Source: Escherichia phage vB_EcoM_G53
Reading direction: 5' to 3' (one strand)
Length of the DNA: 64,000 bases
Sequence record: MK327943.1
Positions 6,366-43,529 of this stretch are shown piece after piece (positions within the stretch are counted from its first letter, which is position 1; each line of letters begins with the position of its first letter). The notes below the pieces were generated by a model. That model was not told the origin of the DNA. It saw only the letters and a program-made list of their open reading frames with translations, and made no database searches. The translations under genes and the position numbers were made by a program.

Positions 6366-6601
6366 ATGTATTCTCTTCGAATGAAGTCCTCTACATATTT
6401 TAACATGTCATCTCTATCAGCAAAATATTCATCTAGTTCTGCATACATAACAACACCTGGTGCATACTCACAGGTAACATACATTGTTCCAAAGAAACGA
6501 GGAGTTGATTCCTCGTAATTCTCAGTCCATTCAACGATACCAATATAACCGTCACCAATACTAAATTCATGACGATGGATTTCATAATCAGTCTTCGTCA
6601 T
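6362..6601 (-). CDS. Hypothetical protein between genes 47 and 46
   Basis: 79 aa from ATG with SD GAGGA; acidic small protein; overlaps gene 46 start by ATGA. Confidence 0.55.
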   Translation of the reverse strand: MTKTDYEIHRHEFSIGDGYIGIVEWTENYEESTPRFFGTMYVTCEYAPGVVMYAELDEYFADRDDMLKYVEDFIRREYI

Positions 6602-6845
6602 TATACGCATCCTCAATACACGCTTCAGCCATTTTAAGAATAGAGCCGGGAGTATCGTTGTCCATTATATTAAAGCTAAATTCAATGGCCCAGTCGGTGC
6701 AGACATGAACTGCTTTAACTTCATTGCCTTCAACGCGTAATGGCTCAATCCAATACTTGATAGTGTTCTCGAATCCATCATCGTCTTTAACGTCCATTTC
6801 AACTTCAAGTCCAAGCCCAGCATTATTAAATTCATCTAAAGTCAT
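6588..6845 (-). CDS. Hypothetical protein between genes 47 and 46
   Basis: 85-aa ORF, start overlaps gene 47 stop; acidic. Confidence 0.55.
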   Translation of the reverse strand: MTLDEFNNAGLGLEVEMDVKDDDGFENTIKYWIEPLRVEGNEVKAVHVCTDWAIEFSFNIMDNDTPGSILKMAEACIEDAYNDED

Positions 6846-7861
6846 TGTGTTGCCTCAATATAAAGTTCGTTGGAATATTTGACCAGCGCTTCTCTGTCTT
6901 CGTCTGAGATATCTGGAATCGCGTCAATATATTCTTTAATGATATCTTGAAGTGATTTAATCTCGATTTCCTGGTCGTCATCAGATTCAACACTGTTATC
7001 AACTTTAGAAACCATGCGAAGAGAGTGAACTACTTTTTCAAGTTCAGATTCAAACTTAGTCAACTCTGAATCAATTTCTGATACTATAACACGTAAGGCT
7101 AGATTAGTATAATCAGAATAATTGATTTTGCCTTTAAACGGATAAGTGATTCGTCGATGCCATGTTGTTTCATTAGGAATAAATTCCATACGTTCAACAT
7201 CAGTGTCAAATACCCAGAATCCGCGCGGGTCATTCTCATCACCTGCAGTAAGGGTCCATGGTGTCCCAATATATTTGACGTTAGCAGCTTCAGAGATTGT
7301 GTGGAAGTGGCCGGACCAGACTTGTTTATAGGTCTTTAAGAAATCAGGTTCAAGCCCATGAGACTTCATTCCTTTATAGAAATAAAAGCCATTCAGTTCC
7401 CAGTGCCCAACACAATACGCTGCGGAAGAAGTCTTGATGTGCTCTAAGATTTCACCTGTATTTTCTTCACACATCCATGGAACGATATCAATCAGACATC
7501 CGTCAAAATCTACAGTAGTCGGATGCTCGTAAATAGTAAAGTTTTCAAATTGAGTTAACAATTCAGAAACAGTGTTAGGTGTTATTGTATTCTTAAACGC
7601 CATGTCATGGTTTCCTATCGTGACATGAACGTGAATGCCTGCTTTAGAAATCATATCAACGATTTCACGATTGAATTCCATTGTACGATGTGTTATTGCT
7701 TTACGGACGTCAAACCAATCACCGTACTGAATCCAAGTTTTAATCCCGTGTTTCTTAGAGTATTCAATTGCTTGTTGAATACCATCACGTTGAATATCTT
7801 GAACCCATGGGTCGTCTTGTTTGACTCCGATATGGAAGTCGCCTAAGTGCAAAATTTTCAT
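6842..7861 (-). CDS. 47: Recombination endonuclease subunit gp47 (Mre11/SbcD-like phosphoesterase)
   Basis: 339 aa; MKILHLGDFHIG, GDWFD and GNHD phosphoesterase motifs; same length as T4 gp47. Confidence 0.93.
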   Translation of the reverse strand: MKILHLGDFHIGVKQDDPWVQDIQRDGIQQAIEYSKKHGIKTWIQYGDWFDVRKAITHRTMEFNREIVDMISKAGIHVHVTIGNHDMAFKNTITPNTVSELLTQFENFTIYEHPTTVDFDGCLIDIVPWMCEENTGEILEHIKTSSAAYCVGHWELNGFYFYKGMKSHGLEPDFLKTYKQVWSGHFHTISEAANVKYIGTPWTLTAGDENDPRGFWVFDTDVERMEFIPNETTWHRRITYPFKGKINYSDYTNLALRVIVSEIDSELTKFESELEKVVHSLRMVSKVDNSVESDDDQEIEIKSLQDIIKEYIDAIPDISDEDREALVKYSNELYIEATQ

Positions 7862-14266: not shown

Positions 14267-14623
14267 TTAACCCCGGAGTTTATTGAGCTCTTCATAATCA
14301 ATCCAGGATTCTAGCCCTGACGGCAGGTCACATTCAATGTTCCACAGAAGCTCTTCAATGGCTTGCAGGCGATTATATTCTTCAACGGTAATGGTAACCA
14401 TTGGTGCAACCGGTTCTGCCTTTTTAACCATCATGTCGTTCATCAGGACGTAAAGGTCATCACGAACGACAGTGTCGTTCCATCCCCATGATTTGGCTTC
14501 GTAAGCTAATGATGAAGGGAGCACATTTAAAACTTCAATAATAGTTGGAGCATCAGGACCAAGTTCATTGGCACAAACTTCGTATACATCTTGGAAATCT
14601 TTAAGATTTAATGAATATGTCAT
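14267..14623 (-). CDS. Hypothetical acidic protein
   Basis: 118-aa ORF. Confidence 0.5.
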   Translation of the reverse strand: MTYSLNLKDFQDVYEVCANELGPDAPTIIEVLNVLPSSLAYEAKSWGWNDTVVRDDLYVLMNDMMVKKAEPVAPMVTITVEEYNRLQAIEELLWNIECDLPSGLESWIDYEELNKLRG

Positions 14624-14641
14624 TTAAAATTTTCTCGCAGG

Positions 14642-14938
14642 TTATTGTTCTACCCATGAACAAGAGACTTCAAAATCAGGACCACCGTATTCCCAGTGAT
14701 ATTCACCAACAGGAATCCAGTCACCGTGCTCGTTTTCTTCATAGTCCTCAGGCTCAAGGCCAACGAATCGCCATTGGACACCGATGATTCGATTACCCAT
14801 CATTACTCGAAATTCGCCCCATGGATTATCGATAGCATACTGAATATCGTTCTTGGCACGAGAGCACATTTCTTGATATAATAAAGCTTCTAATTCACCC
14901 TTGTCATAAGGACCAGGGAAAGTTAAATCAATACTCAT
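14642..14938 (-). CDS. Hypothetical acidic protein
   Basis: 98-aa ORF, Trp/Glu-rich. Confidence 0.5.
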   Translation of the reverse strand: MSIDLTFPGPYDKGELEALLYQEMCSRAKNDIQYAIDNPWGEFRVMMGNRIIGVQWRFVGLEPEDYEENEHGDWIPVGEYHWEYGGPDFEVSCSWVEQ

Positions 14939-15198
14939 TTAAAATATTCTCGTAGTTGGTCAAATCCACCAATGTGACTTCCGTCAGGAGCAAACACCTG
15001 AGGCATAGTCAATCCAACTTGTGATTCACGTCCAAGCTTAACCAGAAGCTCAGTAATTTTCTCATCATCGAACACACCTTTTTCCGGCATAACATTAATG
15101 AATTCGAATGGTTGTTTCTTAACAGTCAGCAATCGTTTCGCATTATCACAATAAATGCATTTATGAATAGTAGAGTCATACCCGTACACTTTAAACAT
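14935..15198 (-). CDS. nrdC: Glutaredoxin/thioredoxin NrdC
   Basis: 87 aa MFKVYGYDSTIHKCIYCDNAKRLLTVKKQPFEFINVMPEKGVFDDEK... closely matches T4 NrdC; start at the ATG with SD AAAGGAAAAATA. Confidence 0.92.
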   Translation of the reverse strand: MFKVYGYDSTIHKCIYCDNAKRLLTVKKQPFEFINVMPEKGVFDDEKITELLVKLGRESQVGLTMPQVFAPDGSHIGGFDQLREYFK

Positions 15199-15604
15199 TA
15201 TTTTTCCTTTCATCGATTAAATATGCAATGCCAAATACAATACATGTAATAAAACCTGTGATACAGATAGAAACCAACAATACTGTACCAAAGAACCAAA
15301 TCAAGTTATCTTTGGTAGTTTGTTTGATATCCATCTCACGAATTTCTATAGCTATCGTATCACCTTTATTCAGAAGCGTATAAAACGATGGCGATACACG
15401 CCTGTCAAAAACTCGTCCTTGCTCATCTTTATAGACTGCAATAAATTCTAATTTAGAATATTTTCCTGTAGATTGGCCTGAGATTAATTCCACTACCTCC
15501 ACAGGAATTACTTTAGTTTCCATGTAAGTATTCTGGCTGTTCCAAATGAATGGAATAATAGCAAAAACTAAAGCTGCGATAAAACAACGAAGGCTATATC
15601 TCAT
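15191..15604 (-). CDS. Hypothetical membrane protein
   Basis: 137 aa with hydrophobic helices at both ends. Confidence 0.55.
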   Translation of the reverse strand: MRYSLRCFIAALVFAIIPFIWNSQNTYMETKVIPVEVVELISGQSTGKYSKLEFIAVYKDEQGRVFDRRVSPSFYTLLNKGDTIAIEIREMDIKQTTKDNLIWFFGTVLLVSICITGFITCIVFGIAYLIDERKNNV

Positions 15605-30012: not shown

Positions 30013-30342
30013 TTATACTCTAGGCTTTTGAGCTTGTTTGGTATTGGATTCCCATGCGGCTTTGGTAATTTTGTTAGCGGCATAACCAAAGGCATTAGAT
30101 AGAACACCTTTAGAGTTGAATACATCCAATCCAATAAGTACACCGGCTGTGTTAAATTTAGGAGCAAAGTACGCATTAGTTTTAGAAAGAACTTTTTTCA
30201 ATTCAGGGTCTTGAACCAAGCCATCAAAAACGCCTTTACTATTTACTTTGTATGTTACTTTGGGATTTTTACCTTCTTCGATAGCAGCTTTCTGTTCCGC
30301 AGATAATGTAACTTCAGTGATAAACTCCTGATATGTTTTCAT
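30013..30342 (-). CDS. Internal protein (IP) candidate with capsid-targeting N-terminus
   Basis: 109 aa starting MKTYQEFITE, the conserved N-terminal capsid-targeting sequence of T4 internal proteins. Confidence 0.75.
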   Translation of the reverse strand: MKTYQEFITEVTLSAEQKAAIEEGKNPKVTYKVNSKGVFDGLVQDPELKKVLSKTNAYFAPKFNTAGVLIGLDVFNSKGVLSNAFGYAANKITKAAWESNTKQAQKPRV

Positions 30343-30367
30343 TTTGTTCCTATTGTTTTAATTTATG

Positions 30368-30682
30368 TTATTCTTTAGGGAAGTTTTTAGAGTATGCATC
30401 ATAAAGTTTATTACCAATACGACGGAAGACTTTAGCTGCAAAACGGTTTTCAGGGTTTTTAATCATGATTTGCATCATGTAAGTTCCTGCATCCGAAAGA
30501 GCTTCTTCATAGTACCCATTAATTTCTTTAAGAGTCCTACGTTTACCGCCAGGACCATCAACAGTAATTTTCCATTTACCTGTAGAAGTGCGGCTCGGTG
30601 GCTCAACTTGTTCAATCCAAATATAACCACCTTCAACGCGTTGGTTGGCGGATTCTGCAATAAATTCTTTATACGTTTTCAT
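30368..30682 (-). CDS. Internal protein (IP) candidate with capsid-targeting N-terminus
   Basis: 104 aa starting MKTYKEFIAE; body unrelated to the neighbouring IP. Confidence 0.75.
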   Translation of the reverse strand: MKTYKEFIAESANQRVEGGYIWIEQVEPPSRTSTGKWKITVDGPGGKRRTLKEINGYYEEALSDAGTYMMQIMIKNPENRFAAKVFRRIGNKLYDAYSKNFPKE

Positions 30683-30746
30683 TTTTTGTTTCCTTGTTTG
30701 TTTTGATAGAGTAATTATACCATATTAATACTTAAGCGTAAACAAT

Positions 30747-31427
30747 TTAAGCTTTACCGCCAGAAATAATTCCGAAGTTGTTAAAATCGTATCCAATATC
30801 GTCAACATCTACTTTAGGGCTTGCTACAACATAAGCAATTTCACTACGTTTTGCATAGGTGTTGATTTCTTTACCATCGCCACCTAAGAAAGAATACCCA
30901 TTACGTTTTAATGAGCCAAAGTCTTCCGCATCACCAATGAAAGCTTTAACTTTAAATTTGGGGTCTTTGGCATCTGCTTCAATGATAAATTCTTGATACA
31001 TTTTCATTTTTTCCTTAGTAAATTGATTACCATAGTATTTGTACCAAGTCGGACGTTGAGCAATTTTTTCATCTAAGCGTGCTTGACTTATCGCAATGGA
31101 CGCTTCGGACGGGACGTAATTATTACGAAATTCGGCAGGAATGTCGGAAATATCCTGGACAGTCGTGTCCTTGATTTTGAAACCGCGTTTCAAGCATTCA
31201 GCGATTAGCTCGATTTGTCGTAAACGTAAAAATTCGAGTTTGTCGTAAAAGAATGTTACGTGACCTGTGCCTAAGATAAATGTTGGAGAGATTTTAAAAT
31301 CCTTTACACGTTTACCGTTTTGAACATGTTTACGGACTGCACCAAATACGCGTGGTAATTCACGATACTCAGCCATAAGATGTTGGTCGGACAGTTCAGA
31401 AACAAGTGTTAAATTGATACGAGTCAT
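30747..31427 (-). CDS. denV: Endonuclease V (DenV, pyrimidine-dimer glycosylase) with an in-frame C-terminal extension that is an IP-like ORF
   Basis: First ~140 aa [34 protein letters not shown]... match T4 DenV; the frame then continues with no stop through [18 protein letters not shown]... to 30747. An internal ATG at 31007 has SD TAAGGAAAAA. Confidence 0.8.
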
Positions 31428-31485
31428 AATTTCCTCCAAGTAGTTGATGAATGTATAGTATCAAAACCCTTGGAGGAAGTAAACA

Positions 31486-31767
31486 CTATTTTTCTGAAGC
31501 GCCTGAAATATATTTTTCAAGACGTTGTTTCATTAGCGAGCCGTTCTTAGCGATTTCTTCCGGTTTATCGCACATACGTAACAAGGCTTCAAGCTTAGCG
31601 ATATCGCTGGTACGTTCAAATTTGCGAGTATCTATTTTACTAGCAAGTTCAGAAATACGTGCTAATAGACTTTCAGCTTCAACCAAAGCTGCACCTAGCT
31701 TAGTTGCAAATGTGTCGGTAGCTTCGTTAAGAATAGATTCTGATAAAAATTCACTATATGTTTTCAT
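31486..31767 (-). CDS. Internal protein (IP) candidate with capsid-targeting N-terminus
   Basis: 93 aa starting [10 protein letters not shown]; ATG overlaps the lysozyme stop (ATGA). Confidence 0.7.
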
Positions 31768-32252
31768 ATATACGCTTTCCAAGTTCCTGTTTTAAATGTT
31801 GAGATTACGCGTTTCGCGCGATTAGGTGTCTGACGATACCATTTAGATTGGGCTAGATTTACTGCCGCTTCATCCCAACGTTTCTGTTGAAGCATACGAA
31901 GAGAATTAGTAAAACCGGCGACGCCTGCTACACCCATTTGGAAGACCATATTGACCAATGCACAACGACGAACTGCATCTAAAGAATCATACACCGGTTT
32001 AAGTTTAGCATTACCCAAGATTCCGCGAACGGCTTTATCAATGTCTTCATTAAATAGCTTTTCAGCCTCATCAAGGGTAATTGTACCGTTGCATTTATGA
32101 CCGATCATTCTGTCAAGTTCAGCTTTAGCTACGGCTAAAGACGGGTTCTTTGTTACCAAATGGCCTATGCCAATCGTCCAAAAGCCTTCGGTGTCTTTGT
32201 ATAAAGTCAGTCTAAGACCTTCGTCATTACGAAGCATTTCAAATATATTCAT
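31764..32252 (-). CDS. e: Lysozyme (endolysin) e
   Basis: 162 aa [32 protein letters not shown]... closely matches T4 lysozyme, including catalytic Glu11/Asp20 context. Confidence 0.95.
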
Positions 32253-32286: not shown

Positions 32287-32745
32287 TTATAGGAGTGTAG
32301 TGAGCACCTTATATAATGATTTACCCATTACATATTCCCATTGAGAAGGTTTAATTAAAGCGAATGCATCAAATTCAGGAATCTGTCGTCCGTCTGGGAA
32401 TGTATGATAGGAATTACAAACACTGTTTCTGAATTGCTCGTGCTCTACAGGGATGGTATATAGGAACAGATGAATATTCTTATTGTCTGAGTAATGATGT
32501 TCACCTAGGTCTTTCAGGAAGGCAGGGTCATATTGTGTAAACCCGGTTTCTTCTTCGCATTCGCGAATAGCGGCTTCAATAGGAGATTCGCCAGGTTCGA
32601 CACGGCCTTTAGGAATATCCCACCGATGAGCTAATGCACCTTTAGGACGAGAACCAGTTACACGGCCCATGAATAACTCTTTATCTTTTGACATGAAGAT
32701 AATACCGGCTGATAGCTCTTTCACTTTATTTTTCTTACTCATCAT
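32287..32745 (-). CDS. nudE: Nudix hydrolase NudE
   Basis: 152 aa; Nudix box GRVEPGESPIEAAIRECEEETG; position next to e as in T4. Confidence 0.85.
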   Translation of the reverse strand: MMSKKNKVKELSAGIIFMSKDKELFMGRVTGSRPKGALAHRWDIPKGRVEPGESPIEAAIRECEEETGFTQYDPAFLKDLGEHHYSDNKNIHLFLYTIPVEHEQFRNSVCNSYHTFPDGRQIPEFDAFALIKPSQWEYVMGKSLYKVLTTLL

Positions 32746-39805: not shown

Positions 39806-40432
39806 TTATTTACGGGTTTTTGCATACTGAGCAGCGTCAGCAGCCAAACGACCTGCTTGTCGAAGTTTTTCTTTAATCTCATCATGAAGTGGTTGAGTAT
39901 ACTTCAAACCTTCGATAGTCAAATAAAGACGATAAAGGTCTGGGGTATCAAGGTTGTTGATATGTTGGCCATTACGAAGAATATTGAATTCACGAACGAG
40001 TGAAGACGTATCAGATTCAATATCACGAACAAGCGAAGATAGTTGTTTATATTTTTTTTCCAGGCTAGAAGTATCAAACTTAAGAGCAGGAGCTTTAGGA
40101 GTTGCTTTTACTTCCGGCTTAGGCTCAGGTTTTGCTACTGCTTTAGGGGTCGCAGGTTTAGGAGTGGTAGGAGCAGGTTTCACTTTAGGCGAACCAGATT
40201 TAGCAGAAACACCACCACTAACAATATCTTTGAATGCTTTAGAAGCTCTGTAATATTCTTTTTGGCTGGAAGTGTCGATACCGTACATGGCTTGAACGTT
40301 TTTGAAAAACTCTGTACTAGTTTTTGTACCAGAAATAGCATCGTAAGCAGCTTGCCATTTCTCTTTTGTCATACGTACACCGGCTTCGGTGATTACTTCC
40401 GTTTCGGCTAAAAATTCATTAAAAGTATACAT
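39806..40432 (-). CDS. Internal protein I-like protein (divergent capsid-targeting N-terminus, Pro/Lys-rich linker)
   Basis: 208 aa starting MYTFNEFLAETE; middle PKVKPAPTTPKPATPKAVAKPEPKPEVKATPKAPA; sits immediately downstream of the tRNA region, as ipI does in T4. Confidence 0.6.
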   Translation of the reverse strand: MYTFNEFLAETEVITEAGVRMTKEKWQAAYDAISGTKTSTEFFKNVQAMYGIDTSSQKEYYRASKAFKDIVSGGVSAKSGSPKVKPAPTTPKPATPKAVAKPEPKPEVKATPKAPALKFDTSSLEKKYKQLSSLVRDIESDTSSLVREFNILRNGQHINNLDTPDLYRLYLTIEGLKYTQPLHDEIKEKLRQAGRLAADAAQYAKTRK

Positions 40433-40467: not shown

Positions 40468-40475
40468 TATTTATA
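40468..40475 (-). promoter_or_regulatory. Late promoter TATAAATA upstream of the ipI-like gene
   Basis: Minus-sense TGTATAAATATAG about 35 nt upstream of the start; SD TAAGGA. Confidence 0.5.
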
Positions 40476-40505
40476 CAAAAAAGCCCCGACCTTTCGGAAG
40501 GGGCT
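40476..40505 (-). terminator. Rho-independent terminator-like hairpin AGCCCC-12 nt-GGGGCT followed by T6
   Basis: Minus-sense AGCCCCTTCCGAAAGGTCGGGGCTTTTTTG; terminates transcripts reading through the tRNA region. Confidence 0.6.
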
Positions 40506-41170: not shown

Positions 41171-41247
<77 letters not shown>

Positions 41248-41253
41248 AATATA

Positions 41254-41327
41254 TGACCCAGACCAGATTCGAACTGGTAACCTTTCCCTTATGAGGGGAC
41301 TGCTGCTAACCATTGAGCTACAGGGCC
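41254..41327 (-). tRNA. tRNA with anticodon CAU (Met or Ile2-type)
   Basis: Manual fold: T arm ACCAG-UUCGAAU-CUGGU, anticodon loop CUCAUAA, acceptor GGCCCUG/CUGGGUC with one U-U mismatch, 3-bp D stem; 6 nt from tRNA-Arg. Confidence 0.6.
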
Positions 41328-42577: not shown

Positions 42578-42763
42578 TTACTCACCTTTTGCAATTTTAT
42601 CCATAACGATAGCGATTAAGCCGATTAGAAATGCTACTACCAATGAGATAGAATTTTCTGTTGTTGACAGTAGTCCACAAATGAATCCTACAAACATCGA
42701 AAAACTAAAAGCCATTGAAGCAATTACTACAGCAACATTACGAATCAGTTCAGCGCGTTTCAT
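42578..42763 (-). CDS. Small membrane protein
   Basis: 61 aa from MKRAELIRNVAVVIASMAFSFSMFVGFICGLL with SD GGAG; two hydrophobic helices. Confidence 0.5.
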   Translation of the reverse strand: MKRAELIRNVAVVIASMAFSFSMFVGFICGLLSTTENSISLVVAFLIGLIAIVMDKIAKGE

Positions 42764-42791
42764 TTTATTTCTCCATTTACTCATTTGATTT

Positions 42792-42830
42792 GATAGGACT
42801 ACTATAACATAGTCCTATCATCATGTAAAC
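42792..42830 (-). promoter_or_regulatory. Early promoter / stem-loop cassette (perfect 9-bp inverted repeat around the -10)
   Basis: gataggactactataacatagtcctatc...gtaaac; minus-sense GTTTACA-17-TATAGT. Confidence 0.6.
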
Positions 42831-42832
42831 TA

Positions 42833-43096
42833 TTAAATTCCAGCTTCGCGTTTAACATAATCGACATAAGCTTGGATAGCTTTCTTGCTGGTAATTTTTA
42901 CCTGGCCACGACCATTGCCTTCTTTAGAGTTTTTCTTAACAACTACATTACCATCTTTAACACCCCATACATGGACATAAGTACCGATGTTTCGGTCGTA
43001 GAACATTGCATGGTCGTTGTTGTAAGAGAATGATTCGTAGTTCTCCGACAGAGTAGAAGATTGAGATTCAGCGATAAATTCTTTATACGTTTTCAT
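42833..43096 (-). CDS. Internal protein (IP) candidate with capsid-targeting N-terminus
   Basis: 87 aa starting MKTYKEFIAESQ. Confidence 0.75.
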   Translation of the reverse strand: MKTYKEFIAESQSSTLSENYESFSYNNDHAMFYDRNIGTYVHVWGVKDGNVVVKKNSKEGNGRGQVKITSKKAIQAYVDYVKREAGI

Positions 43097-43122: not shown

Positions 43123-43161
43123 GATAGGACTACTATAACATAGTCCTATCTGCATGTAAAC
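43123..43161 (-). promoter_or_regulatory. Early promoter / stem-loop cassette
   Basis: Identical core to the 42792 copy (gataggactactataacatagtcctatc). Confidence 0.6.
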
Positions 43162-43164
43162 TAC

Positions 43165-43452
43165 TTACAGAAGAGTTTTTGCAATAATTTTAAGCTGAGC
43201 TACAGAAATATGCTTAGCTTTAAACAGTGCGGTCTCTTCAGCCGGAGAGATAACAATAGTAGCGCCATCTTTCTTAGCAGACCATCCATCCCCTAAGTAA
43301 ACAGTACCTTTTACTTCTTCGCCATCAACCAGACTAATCATCGGTTTACCCTCACGTCCTTTATTTGCTTTAATAACTTCGGAAGTAAGGGTTGCTTCGG
43401 TCAGAGTAGAAACGTTAGCAACAGGTGATATAAATTCTTTATAGGTTTTCAT
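43165..43452 (-). CDS. Internal protein (IP) candidate with capsid-targeting N-terminus
   Basis: 95 aa starting MKTYKEFISPVANVSTLTEA. Confidence 0.7.
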   Translation of the reverse strand: MKTYKEFISPVANVSTLTEATLTSEVIKANKGREGKPMISLVDGEEVKGTVYLGDGWSAKKDGATIVISPAEETALFKAKHISVAQLKIIAKTLL

Positions 43453-43529
43453 TTTATTTCCTTGAGGTTGTTTATTTGATAGGATGATAGTAACACACCA
43501 TCATCCTTATGTAAACTGTTTTGTGAAAA

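Follow-up and report, generated by a model that had tools for sequence, protein, structure and literature searches.

Internal-protein cassettes with a shared capsid-targeting start at the e-denV hotspot of the RB69-like phage G53: candidate injected anti-defence genes

Escherichia phage vB_EcoM_G53 is an RB69-like Mosigvirus, and the e-denV region of its genome is its 'internal protein' (Ip) hotspot. Here we analyse a window of 64,000 nucleotides from this phage (MK327943.1), in which four small genes at this site (cassettes A-D) and three elsewhere begin with a capsid-targeting sequence (CTS) like that of T4 internal proteins. The assignment of the cassettes as T-even Ip genes is well supported by sequence: they carry the CTS and an [I/L]-x-E motif, occupy both Ip loci and are accompanied by an Ip1 orthologue. 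With moderate confidence, we read the region as an Ip hotspot whose products are packaged, cleaved and injected and inhibit type IV nucleases, and whose cassettes diversify by CTS-armed exchange. By analogy, A, B and D are candidate packaged, injected anti-defence proteins.

Neither the locus nor the principle is new, at least three of the seven genes are already on record, and the Ip view is established (Repoila 1994; Rao & Black 2010; Silas 2025). A first-pass annotation of this DNA, which called the genes uncharacterised and the best candidates for anti-defence effectors, overstated their novelty, since 43165-43452 is Ip1, 30368-30682 is Ip10 and two others are labelled in RefSeq; its view that the loci hold diverse injected anti-restriction proteins, as in T4, matches the published consensus (PMC3012670, PMC12373910). 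What is added here is a swap breakpoint at the 3' end of the CTS, a set of 29 body families, and T4-type early promoters before cassettes.

Gene inventory and the capsid-targeting start

All four of the minus-strand ORFs previously noted beside e and denV are present (Table 1). Each begins with the T4 CTS, as had been claimed, the exception to the claim being that cassette B does not start with MKTY. The three further copies listed in the first-pass annotation (39806, 42833 and 43165) also exist, the CTS of 39806-40432 being degenerate. Synteny with the RB69 and T4 annotations places the cassettes at both classical Ip loci, e-denV-vs.8 and 57B-trna.4, and the ATG of cassette A overlaps the stop codon of e (ATGA).

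Table 1. Features of the two Ip loci and of the additional CTS-bearing ORF (positions in the window)
Feature	Coordinates	Strand	Description
e (T4 lysozyme orthologue)	31764..32252	(-)	upstream edge of e-denV Ip locus
Ip cassette A	31486..31767	(-)	93 aa; predicted mature body ~83 aa, near neutral
denV (endonuclease V, pyrimidine-dimer glycosylase)	31008..31427	(-)	Pfam Pyr_excise 1.5e-13; between cassettes A and B
Ip cassette B	30747..31007	(-)	86 aa; predicted mature body 76 aa, acidic, pI 5.2
early-type promoter for cassettes C and D	30714..30742	(-)	sigma-70-like, T4-type
Ip cassette C (Ip10)	30368..30682	(-)	104 aa; MKTYKEFIAE start; predicted mature body 94 aa, basic
Ip cassette D	30013..30342	(-)	109 aa; MKTYQEFITE start; basic
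Ip1 orthologue	43165..43452	(-)	second Ip locus, beside 57B; MKTYKEFISP start
extra CTS cassette, ipI locus	42833..43096	(-)	87 aa; MKTYKEFIAE start
degenerate-CTS ORF	39806..40432	(-)	208 aa; MYTFNEFLAE start

The 666 candidate Met starts were scored with a 10-residue CTS PSSM, trained on IMG/VR contigs from unrelated phages only. Exactly seven ORFs scored 23-37 bits (39806-40432 reaching 23.4 bits despite its degenerate CTS), and the remaining 659 starts all scored -1.1 or less; these are the same seven genes that comparison of N-termini had picked out at first pass. The pattern Y.EF[IL] occurs eight times over all six frames, six of these at residues 4-8 of the seven ORFs. The CTS-like starts are not a product of chance.

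A CTS near MKTYQEFIAE (Tyr/Phe at 4, Phe at 7) is present in cassettes A-D, 42833-43096 and 43165-43452, and residues 4 and 7 are known to matter for the targeting function of the CTS (PMC9026906). At motif level, residues 8-10 of A-D conform to the [I/L]-x-E motif of the gp21 prohead protease (FITE/V, FIAE/S, FIIE/A and FLSE/S, the slash marking the cut), with further possible cleavage sites at residue 23 in cassette D (I-x-E/G) and residue 15 in cassette A. Both the protease motif and residues 4 and 7 belong to a CTS that is conserved in amino acids over 29 families with diverged DNA.

Identity of the individual genes

The gene at 43165-43452 is 94% identical to T4 ipI and matches Pfam IPI_T4 over residues 20-95 (1.3e-50). 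It has no Glu at position 10; its predicted propeptide has 19 residues (...STLTE/ATL, motif LTE/A), and residues 1-76 of PDB 2JUB align to its residues 20-95, starting exactly after the predicted E19 cleavage. On this evidence the gene is identified as Ip1, a characterised GmrSD inhibitor. Its neighbour 42833-43096 has homologues in 35 phage records only, from a subset of Mosigvirus and Dhakavirus.

At the e-denV locus, cassette A belongs to phrog_3499 ('internal head protein', 2e-46) and cassette B to phrog_2667 ('internal head protein', 2.6e-21). Their RB69 homologues, RB69p127 and RB69p125 respectively, already carry the label 'internal head protein' in RefSeq. Cassette C shares a 90% cluster with phage Pol Ip10 (CAA84455.1/Q38382), has 72% identity to the SP18 (Shigella phage) Ip10 and carries an ip10 annotation in phage VR20, by which it is identified as Ip10. 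Close homologues of A, C and D were few, at 2-5 clusters per search: for cassette A five (among 5.8 billion), all of at least 81% identity, and for cassette D two, both of at least 96% identity. An all-against-all representative search with the cassette D body added one distant relative, P0113 (37% identity, E 6.5e-7), which is also CTS-bearing; the other matches were rejected as repeat-protein noise.

Unrelated bodies under constraint

Beyond the shared start the bodies are mutually unrelated, as the first-pass annotation had proposed: no pair was found by BLASTP with E<0.1, and HHalign family pairs involving cassettes A-D all had a probability of 3% or less. Cassettes C and D are both assigned to phrog_3966 in PHROGs; their treatment as one family was rejected, as neither method gives a body relationship, and the joint assignment is taken to reflect the shared CTS or a clustering effect. 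The dN/dS of the bodies (0.03-0.38; 0.03-0.09 for cassette A and 0.10-0.33 for cassette B) corresponds to purifying selection, and marks the cassettes as real genes under constraint. Cassette A is near neutral and B acidic; C and D are lysine-rich and basic.

Searches of A-D against Pfam, PADLOC and PDB sequences gave nothing significant, the best hit being CsgH for Ip10, below threshold at E=0.074. By BLASTP and HHalign the A-D bodies resemble none of Ip1, Ip2 and Ip3, whether as sequences or as profiles, and no homology to the sequence or fold of IPI* (Pfam PF11634, PDB 2JUB) was found. This lack of homology to Ip1-3 and of Pfam, PADLOC or PDB matches counts against the explanation favoured here. 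The AF2 model of cassette D (pLDDT 79.5) is a small beta-rich domain with no significant match among PDB and BFVD folds, and that of Ip10 (pLDDT 46.8) is unusable. Structure prediction gave no functional lead.

Promoters

Both denV-B and C-D have an early-type promoter immediately ahead of them. The one before C-D consists of TTTACG, a 17-nt spacer and TATAAT with a TG extended -10 (10 of 12 matches, with TG), and its GTTTAC...TAnnnT layout is also found upstream of T4 ipI, ipII and ipIII. The 42833-43096 gene has its own early-type promoter at 43160-43132. Ahead of the degenerate-CTS ORF, a terminator-like hairpin (40499-40484) is followed by a perfect late promoter, TATAAATA (40475-40468); this ORF is the sole CTS gene with such a promoter beside it, and a scan of the e-denV locus found no perfect late promoter there. 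With early-type promoters in front of the e-locus cassettes, their timing relative to prohead assembly is a presumption.

The denV-cassette B fusion

In G53, cassette B is in frame with denV (ATG 31427) with no stop between them, giving a 230-aa ORF (30747-31439). Alignment with RB69 and p000y reveals a 1-nt deletion at 31028-31027 (AA here, AAA in both others), by which the denV stop is lost and cassette B joined in frame. The fused protein (226 aa) has a single identical entry, QBO65262.1 (phage G53). Cassette B also possesses a Shine-Dalgarno sequence of its own (AAGGAAAAAATG), and its translation in G53 may be in part as a DenV fusion.

That the fusion is a sequencing or assembly error, with cassette B a normal separate gene, is a real possibility, though we lean slightly away from it. 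The difference is one A in an AAA run, and the fused form is known from one contig, as against a cluster of 475 members (40 read) with separate DenV and B. However, A3 to A2 is a short homopolymer change, for which a miscall is improbable with Illumina-type data, and the deposited record carries the denV-Ip fusion as a CDS. The fusion could be a genuine recent mutation, tolerated because cassette B retains its own ribosome-binding site.

Cassette exchange

Using e as an anchor, we surveyed 54 related loci. Across both Ip loci, 125 CTS proteins from about 55 viral contigs fall into 29 body families, of which the cassette B family and a family of 99-102-aa Ips occur at both loci. Cassette content differs even among genomes that are 97-99% identical. 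The clearest case is Av-05, which is 97% identical to G53 except at 30653-30352, where an Ip3-like body replaces the Ip10 body. Upstream, the two sequences part where the CTS codons end (3' end), and the other breakpoint is 9 nt before the next ATG; the same replacement is found in Av-05-type Mosigviruses, and for cassette C many Mosigvirus records align over the promoter and CTS only. One contig, with flanks just 80-82% identical to the window, matches cassette B at 94.5% identity.

Each gene may be viewed as a conserved head (often a T4-type early promoter, a short leader and the 30 nt of the CTS) joined to a family-specific body. Diversity would then arise by cassette replacement, through homologous recombination with the CTS and leader as one arm, rather than by rapid point mutation; this view draws on the breakpoints mapped in one swap between related genomes.

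Comparison with known systems

T4 Ip1 (IPI*), Ip2 and Ip3 resemble the cassettes in their CTS, [I/L]-x-E motif, small size and early-type promoter. Their genes occupy the same two sites, one next to denV on the downstream side of e and the other following 57B, and G53 has a true Ip1 orthologue (94%). In contrast to T4, the A-D bodies are unlike Ip1-3, G53 is without an Ip2 or Ip3 orthologue, denV lies between the cassettes and not after them, A and B are not basic, and the context is arabinosylated DNA instead of glucosyl-hmC DNA. Repoila et al. in 1994 reportedly described Ip4-Ip10 of T-even phages, including Ip10 of phage Pol, from polymorphic ip loci with a conserved CTS, an arrangement identical in concept to that seen here, where cassette C is Ip10.

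Bas37_0260, a CTS protein from the ipI locus of the T4-like BASEL phage Bas37, blocks McrBC, which shows that the type IV targets open to Ip-class proteins extend beyond GmrSD; it shares with the cassettes the common N-terminal signal, the hotspot and an orphan body (bioRxiv 10.1101/2025.11.20.689424). Since tblastn finds no Tequatrovirus homologue of 42833-43096, this gene and Bas37_0260 probably belong to different families. Anti-CRISPR and anti-defence hotspots, an analogy drawn by Silas et al. (PMC12373910), likewise exchange unrelated small inhibitors at a fixed position with conserved flanks. Unlike in those hotspots, the shared Ip element sits within the protein as a packaging and cleavage tag, and the inhibitors would therefore be delivered pre-made with the DNA.

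Proposed function and alternatives

Ips are regarded as a varied repertoire of defence proteins (PMC3012670). Three of them, Ip1, Ip2 and Ip3, inhibit type IV nucleases of the GmrSD kind, each having a different one as its target (Silas 2025, PMC12373910), and IPIII is required on ECOR17 and functions without its CTS (PMC9391042). GmrSD/BrxU enzymes cut RB69-type DNA (PMC6024577, PMC13390438). For ip4-10, presumably including Ip10, no reproducible inhibition was seen with the extra GmrSD systems tried, in challenges with the glucosyl-hmC phages T2, T4 and T6 (PMC12373910). Our literature search found no virion proteome of an RB69-like phage (Mosigvirus), no direct evidence of A-D in virions, cleaved or injected, and no type IV inhibition result for A, B or D.

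In the mechanism that we propose, the cassettes would be expressed from early promoters and by read-through of e, as the promoter-like sites and the ATGA overlap suggest. The CTS would dock the proteins on the scaffolding core of the assembling prohead, as described for T4 IPIII, and gp21 would cleave behind the Glu of [I/L]-x-E, which is residue 10 or, in D and A, perhaps residues 23 and 15 respectively. Judging from the motif, cleavage would free mature proteins of ~8-11 kDa that remain in the head with the DNA. After injection with the DNA, each would bind and inactivate one modification-dependent type IV variant (GmrSD- or McrBC-like) that, left active, would cut the G53 DNA with its arabinosylated cytosine, a step proposed by analogy with Ip1, Ip2, Ip3 and Bas37_0260. 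The charge of A and B, which are not basic, unlike T4 Ips, the GmrSD-negative outcome for ip4-10, the early-type promoters of the e-locus cassettes and the possible translation of B as a DenV fusion are observations that count against this explanation.

The proteins could instead be packaged and injected through the CTS and have targets or roles outside type IV restriction, such as other first-response defences, host takeover, or DNA condensation or ejection. The bodies have nothing in common with known GmrSD inhibitors, ip4-10 gave no reproducible GmrSD inhibition, and the beta-rich model of cassette D has no informative match, all of which would fit such a role; DNA condensation in particular would suit the lysine-rich, basic C and D, as T4 internal proteins touch packaged DNA through lysines (PMC3012670). 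We nevertheless consider it unlikely, as all four Ip-class proteins of known target (Ip1, Ip2, Ip3 and Bas37_0260) inhibit type IV nucleases, charge neutralisation misfits the acidic or neutral A and B, and presence or absence among near-identical phages is better explained by host-specific counter-defence than by a structural role. It is more improbable still that some ORFs are early cytoplasmic accessory proteins that are not efficiently packaged, their CTS-like start being kept mainly as a recombination arm. The early-type promoters directly upstream of denV-B and C-D, the breakpoint exactly at the CTS boundary, the activity of IPIII in the cytoplasm without its CTS (PMC9391042) and the fusion of B to DenV in a phage apparently not lost are all compatible with this. 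However, the CTS is kept as amino acids across the 29 families, including residues 4 and 7 (PMC9026906) and the protease motif, and T4 ipI, ipII and ipIII, whose products are known to be packaged, share the early-promoter layout.

There is a minor but real chance that one or more of the Mosigvirus-enriched orphan cassettes (A, B, D or 42833-43096) inhibit a defence outside the known Ip targets. This may be, for example, a nuclease dedicated to DNA with arabinosyl-5-hydroxycytosine, or a first-response system that is not a nuclease, and if so the cassette would represent a new anti-defence protein family carried pre-made in the capsid. Much less likely is that the DenV-Ip fusion carries a DNA-repair glycosylase into the head.

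Implications

That the CTS codons also serve as a recombination handle for cassette exchange was proposed earlier, and the mapped breakpoints support this. Injected Ips are the phage's first counter-defence; recent work shows that every known one disables a different enzyme of type IV restriction, a group that also shapes host range in therapeutic T4-like phages. RB69-like phages combine arabinosylated DNA with an orphan Ip set of their own. The G53 locus offers a short list of candidate inhibitors to be matched with nucleases active on arabinosylated DNA, and in this sense contributes more candidates to an existing idea rather than a new one.

Locus organization

The four minus-strand ORFs that the first-pass annotation placed beside e and denV (here cassettes A-D) are all present at the coordinates tabulated below, in a gene order agreeing with the RB69 annotation (RB69p127, denV, p125, p124, p123). 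Each starts with the 10-residue capsid-targeting sequence (CTS) of the T4 internal proteins (Ips), followed by the remainder of the protein, or body. The 2.4 kb around the cluster is 98-99% identical to the Mosigvirus genomes p000y, JK36, APCEc01 and RB69, and exact-sequence look-up returned vB_EcoM_G53 entries identical to window-encoded proteins (QBO65260, QBO65262, QBO65282, QBO65289), which makes this an RB69-like phage, G53 or one almost identical to it. At the same place, T4 carries e, ipIII, ipII and denV, while T4 ipI adjoins 57B. In the Tequatrovirus FriedrichMiescher (Bas39), the e locus (14519-15326 of its contig) encodes an Ip10 homolog followed by a 157-aa CTS protein; denV is absent between e and vs.8 in this phage, so that denV itself is not a constant member of the hotspot. 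RB69 is reported to have two tRNAs, compared with eight in T4, and the window count agrees with RB69.

Genes of the e-denV locus and further features of the window
Feature	Position	Strand	Remark
nudE	32287-32745	minus	first in the listed e-denV gene order
e	31764-32252	minus	between nudE and A
cassette A	31486-31767	minus	CTS ORF between e and denV
denV	ATG at 31427	minus	between A and B
cassette B	30747-31007	minus	CTS ORF after denV
cassette C	30368-30682	minus	CTS ORF after B
cassette D	30013-30342	minus	CTS ORF after C, before vs.8
vs.8		minus	end of the listed order, past D
CTS ORF	39806-40432		starts MYTFNEFLAE (degenerate)
tRNA-Arg-TCT, tRNA-Met-CAT	41171-41327	minus	between both Ip loci
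CTS ORF	42833-43096		starts MKTYKEFIAE
CTS ORF	43165-43452		starts MKTYKEFISP

Capsid-targeting sequences

A position-specific matrix was built from 32 distinct 10-mers of unrelated IMG/VR contigs and applied to Met positions with at least 40 codons after them. Exactly the seven CTS ORFs in the table score 23-37 bits, and the remaining 659 Met positions in the window score -1.1 or less, so the original list of seven CTS genes is complete and far beyond chance. The three copies proposed outside the e-denV locus all exist, though the CTS of 39806-40432 is degenerate. The shared start proposed for the cluster, MKTY(Q/K/S)EF(I/L)xE, holds for three of its four ORFs, while cassette B begins MKMY. 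Motif inspection located a protease motif at residues 8-10. In IPIII, the first 10 residues are enough to direct the protein to the scaffolding core, positions 4 and 7 mattering most, and the propeptide is removed after targeting (PMC9026906).

Relatedness and identity of the bodies

After removal of the first ten residues, all-pairs BLASTP of the seven window proteins and T4 Ip1-3 gave no body pair at E<0.1 except 43165-43452 and T4 ipI (94% identity). Profile-profile comparison of 14 body families, with alignments drawn from related loci, gave a probability of 3% or less for each pair involving any of A-D, and the bodies of these four are thus mutually unrelated, as had been claimed. The sole hint of profile kinship is between 39806-40432 and a 153-157-aa Tequatrovirus CTS family (HHalign probability 25%, E 8e-4). 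The PHROGs grouping of C and D as one family was set down to the common prefix. Judged from their sequences, A-D and fellow bodies are constrained protein-coding genes (body dN/dS of 0.03-0.38 versus diverged homologs), and rapid point substitution is not the way in which they diversify. Searches of Pfam, PADLOC and the PDB returned no relative of A-D.

By sequence, 43165-43452 is Ip1: it matches Pfam IPI_T4 (1.3e-50, residues 20-95), and the solved IPI* chain 2JUB aligns with it residue for residue from position 20, directly after the predicted cleavage between STLTE and A. Cassette C is likewise identified as Ip10, sharing a 90% cluster with 'Ip10 [Enterobacteria phage Pol]' (CAA84455.1/Q38382), showing 72% identity to Ip10 of Shigella phage SP18, and being annotated ip10 in phage VR20; it is common to Mosigvirus (98-99.8% nucleotide identity) and Tequatrovirus (89-92%). 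The RB69 homolog RB69ORF124c (2012-2284 of the RB69 contig) is annotated at 90 aa, against 104-105 aa in the window and most relatives, a difference of 14 residues. Cassettes A and B match PHROGs labelled 'internal head protein', as are their RefSeq RB69 homologs. Cassette D is 'hypothetical' in all records examined, with only two 90% clusters among 5.8 billion, and its one distant relative (37% identity) starts MKTYQQFITE. The product of 39806-40432 (208 aa, basic, with a Pro/Lys-rich middle) has conserved homologs in Mosigvirus, Dhakavirus and T4-like phages of Enterobacter and Klebsiella, and none was found in T4-type Tequatroviruses; the protein is 'hypothetical' in each record listed.

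Cassette exchange

Among 54 related viral contigs anchored on e, the 23 that are T-even-like have between one and five CTS ORFs each, encoded on the same strand as e and usually beginning right at its stop codon. Together with 33 loci anchored on 57B, these yielded 125 CTS proteins in 29 body families (E<1e-4); the B family and a 99-102-aa family are present at both Ip loci, so that families move between loci. The window is 97% identical to an Av-05-type Mosigvirus contig over 33000-28500, save for 30653-30352, where the Ip10 body (30352-30653) is exchanged for a 192-aa Ip3-like body (6599-7168 of that contig). The upstream breakpoint is at the last CTS codon, and the downstream one is 9 nt short of the D start codon (ATG). 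In agreement with a breakpoint at the CTS end, many Mosigvirus records align to no more than the final 26% of the query for cassette C, comprising promoter, leader and CTS. In one contig the counterpart of cassette B is 94.5% identical, whereas the sequence on either side of it drops to 80-82% identity with the window, a pattern indicative of recent lateral exchange. Given the swap breakpoints, the promoter/leader/CTS-only matches and the exchange of B, the conserved head of each cassette behaves as a recombination arm. This idea is said to go back to Repoila et al. in 1994.

The denV-cassette B fusion

In this genome cassette B has no upstream stop and its frame is continuous with denV. Where RB69 and p000y have AAA, the window has AA (31028-31027). 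Owing to this 1-nt deletion, NQFTKEK takes the place of the last four denV codons (KSIY*) and the reading frame stays open into B. With the denV stop lost, 30747-31439 forms an in-frame DenV-Ip fusion, a 226-aa protein in which the CTS and protease site lie internally. The fusion is either a genuine recent mutation or a sequencing error. The fused protein is recorded from a single contig, that of G53, as a pyrimidine-dimer glycosylase, DenV and B being otherwise separate among the 40 listed of the 475 members of its cluster. Cassette B retains its own Shine-Dalgarno sequence (AAGGAAAAAATG), so its separate production is still possible.

Expression signals

Upstream of C and D lies a strong site of the sigma-70 type whose -10 element is TG-extended (30742-30714, 10/12 matches). 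Its equivalents, of the form GTTTAC-N17/18-TAnnnT, are found ahead of 42833 and 43165 as well as T4 ipI, ipII and ipIII. A weaker site ahead of denV (31484-31455) was read by eye and is below the scan threshold, and the start of cassette A forms an ATGA overlap with the e stop. The ipI locus has three near-identical early-type promoters (42801-42829, 43132-43160, 43487-43515; TTTACA, 17-nt spacer, TATAGT or TACTAT, with TG), one ahead of each small gene, including a 68-aa membrane-protein ORF (42578-42784). No perfect late promoter (TATAAATA) occurs within the e-denV locus; the sole one adjoining a CTS gene (40468-40475) precedes 39806-40432 by 36 nt and closely follows a terminator-like hairpin (40484-40499). 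We infer the expression timing of the e-denV cassettes, and since packaged T4 Ips share the early-promoter architecture, early promoters are no argument against packaging.

Proposed roles of the cassettes

The T4 head contains ∼1000 internal protein molecules, described as diverse defense proteins with only the CTS in common (PMC3012670). Ip1, Ip2 and Ip3 each inhibit one variant of the type IV restriction nuclease GmrSD, with no cross-protection (PMC12373910). Infection of ECOR17 requires IPIII, which works without its CTS when supplied in the host cell (PMC9391042), and in phage Bas37 the ipI locus encodes a CTS protein that blocks McrBC (bioRxiv 10.1101/2025.11.20.689424). RB69-type DNA, which bears arabinosylated cytosines, is cut by GmrSD-family enzymes (PMC6024577, PMC13326640, PMC13390438).

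The tag, protease motif, loci, orthology of two genes and cassette exchange are observed for this locus. Cassettes A-D would be packaged in the head, trimmed to ∼8-11 kDa and injected, each neutralizing a particular modification-dependent nuclease. It is very probable that A-D are packaged Ip-class proteins, while their action as type IV nuclease inhibitors is an evenly balanced proposition. Evidence entered against comprises the lack of reproducible inhibition by ip4-10 of five further active GmrSD systems (PMC12373910), and the finding that A and B are not basic. A literature search found no virion proteome of a Mosigvirus.

Hypervariable ip loci with a common CTS, unrelated bodies and an anti-restriction role have been known since 1994, and were restated in 2010, 2022 and 2025. 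The first-pass annotation reads this known system correctly apart from two factual slips, both on the third ORF (its MKMY start and its missing upstream stop), and it overstated the novelty: among the four ORFs, C is Ip10 and both A and B already bore the label of internal head protein, while Ip1 accounts for one of the three copies elsewhere. Its remaining value lies in the concrete list it gives of orphan Ips from phages whose DNA is arabinosylated, as candidates for a target search.
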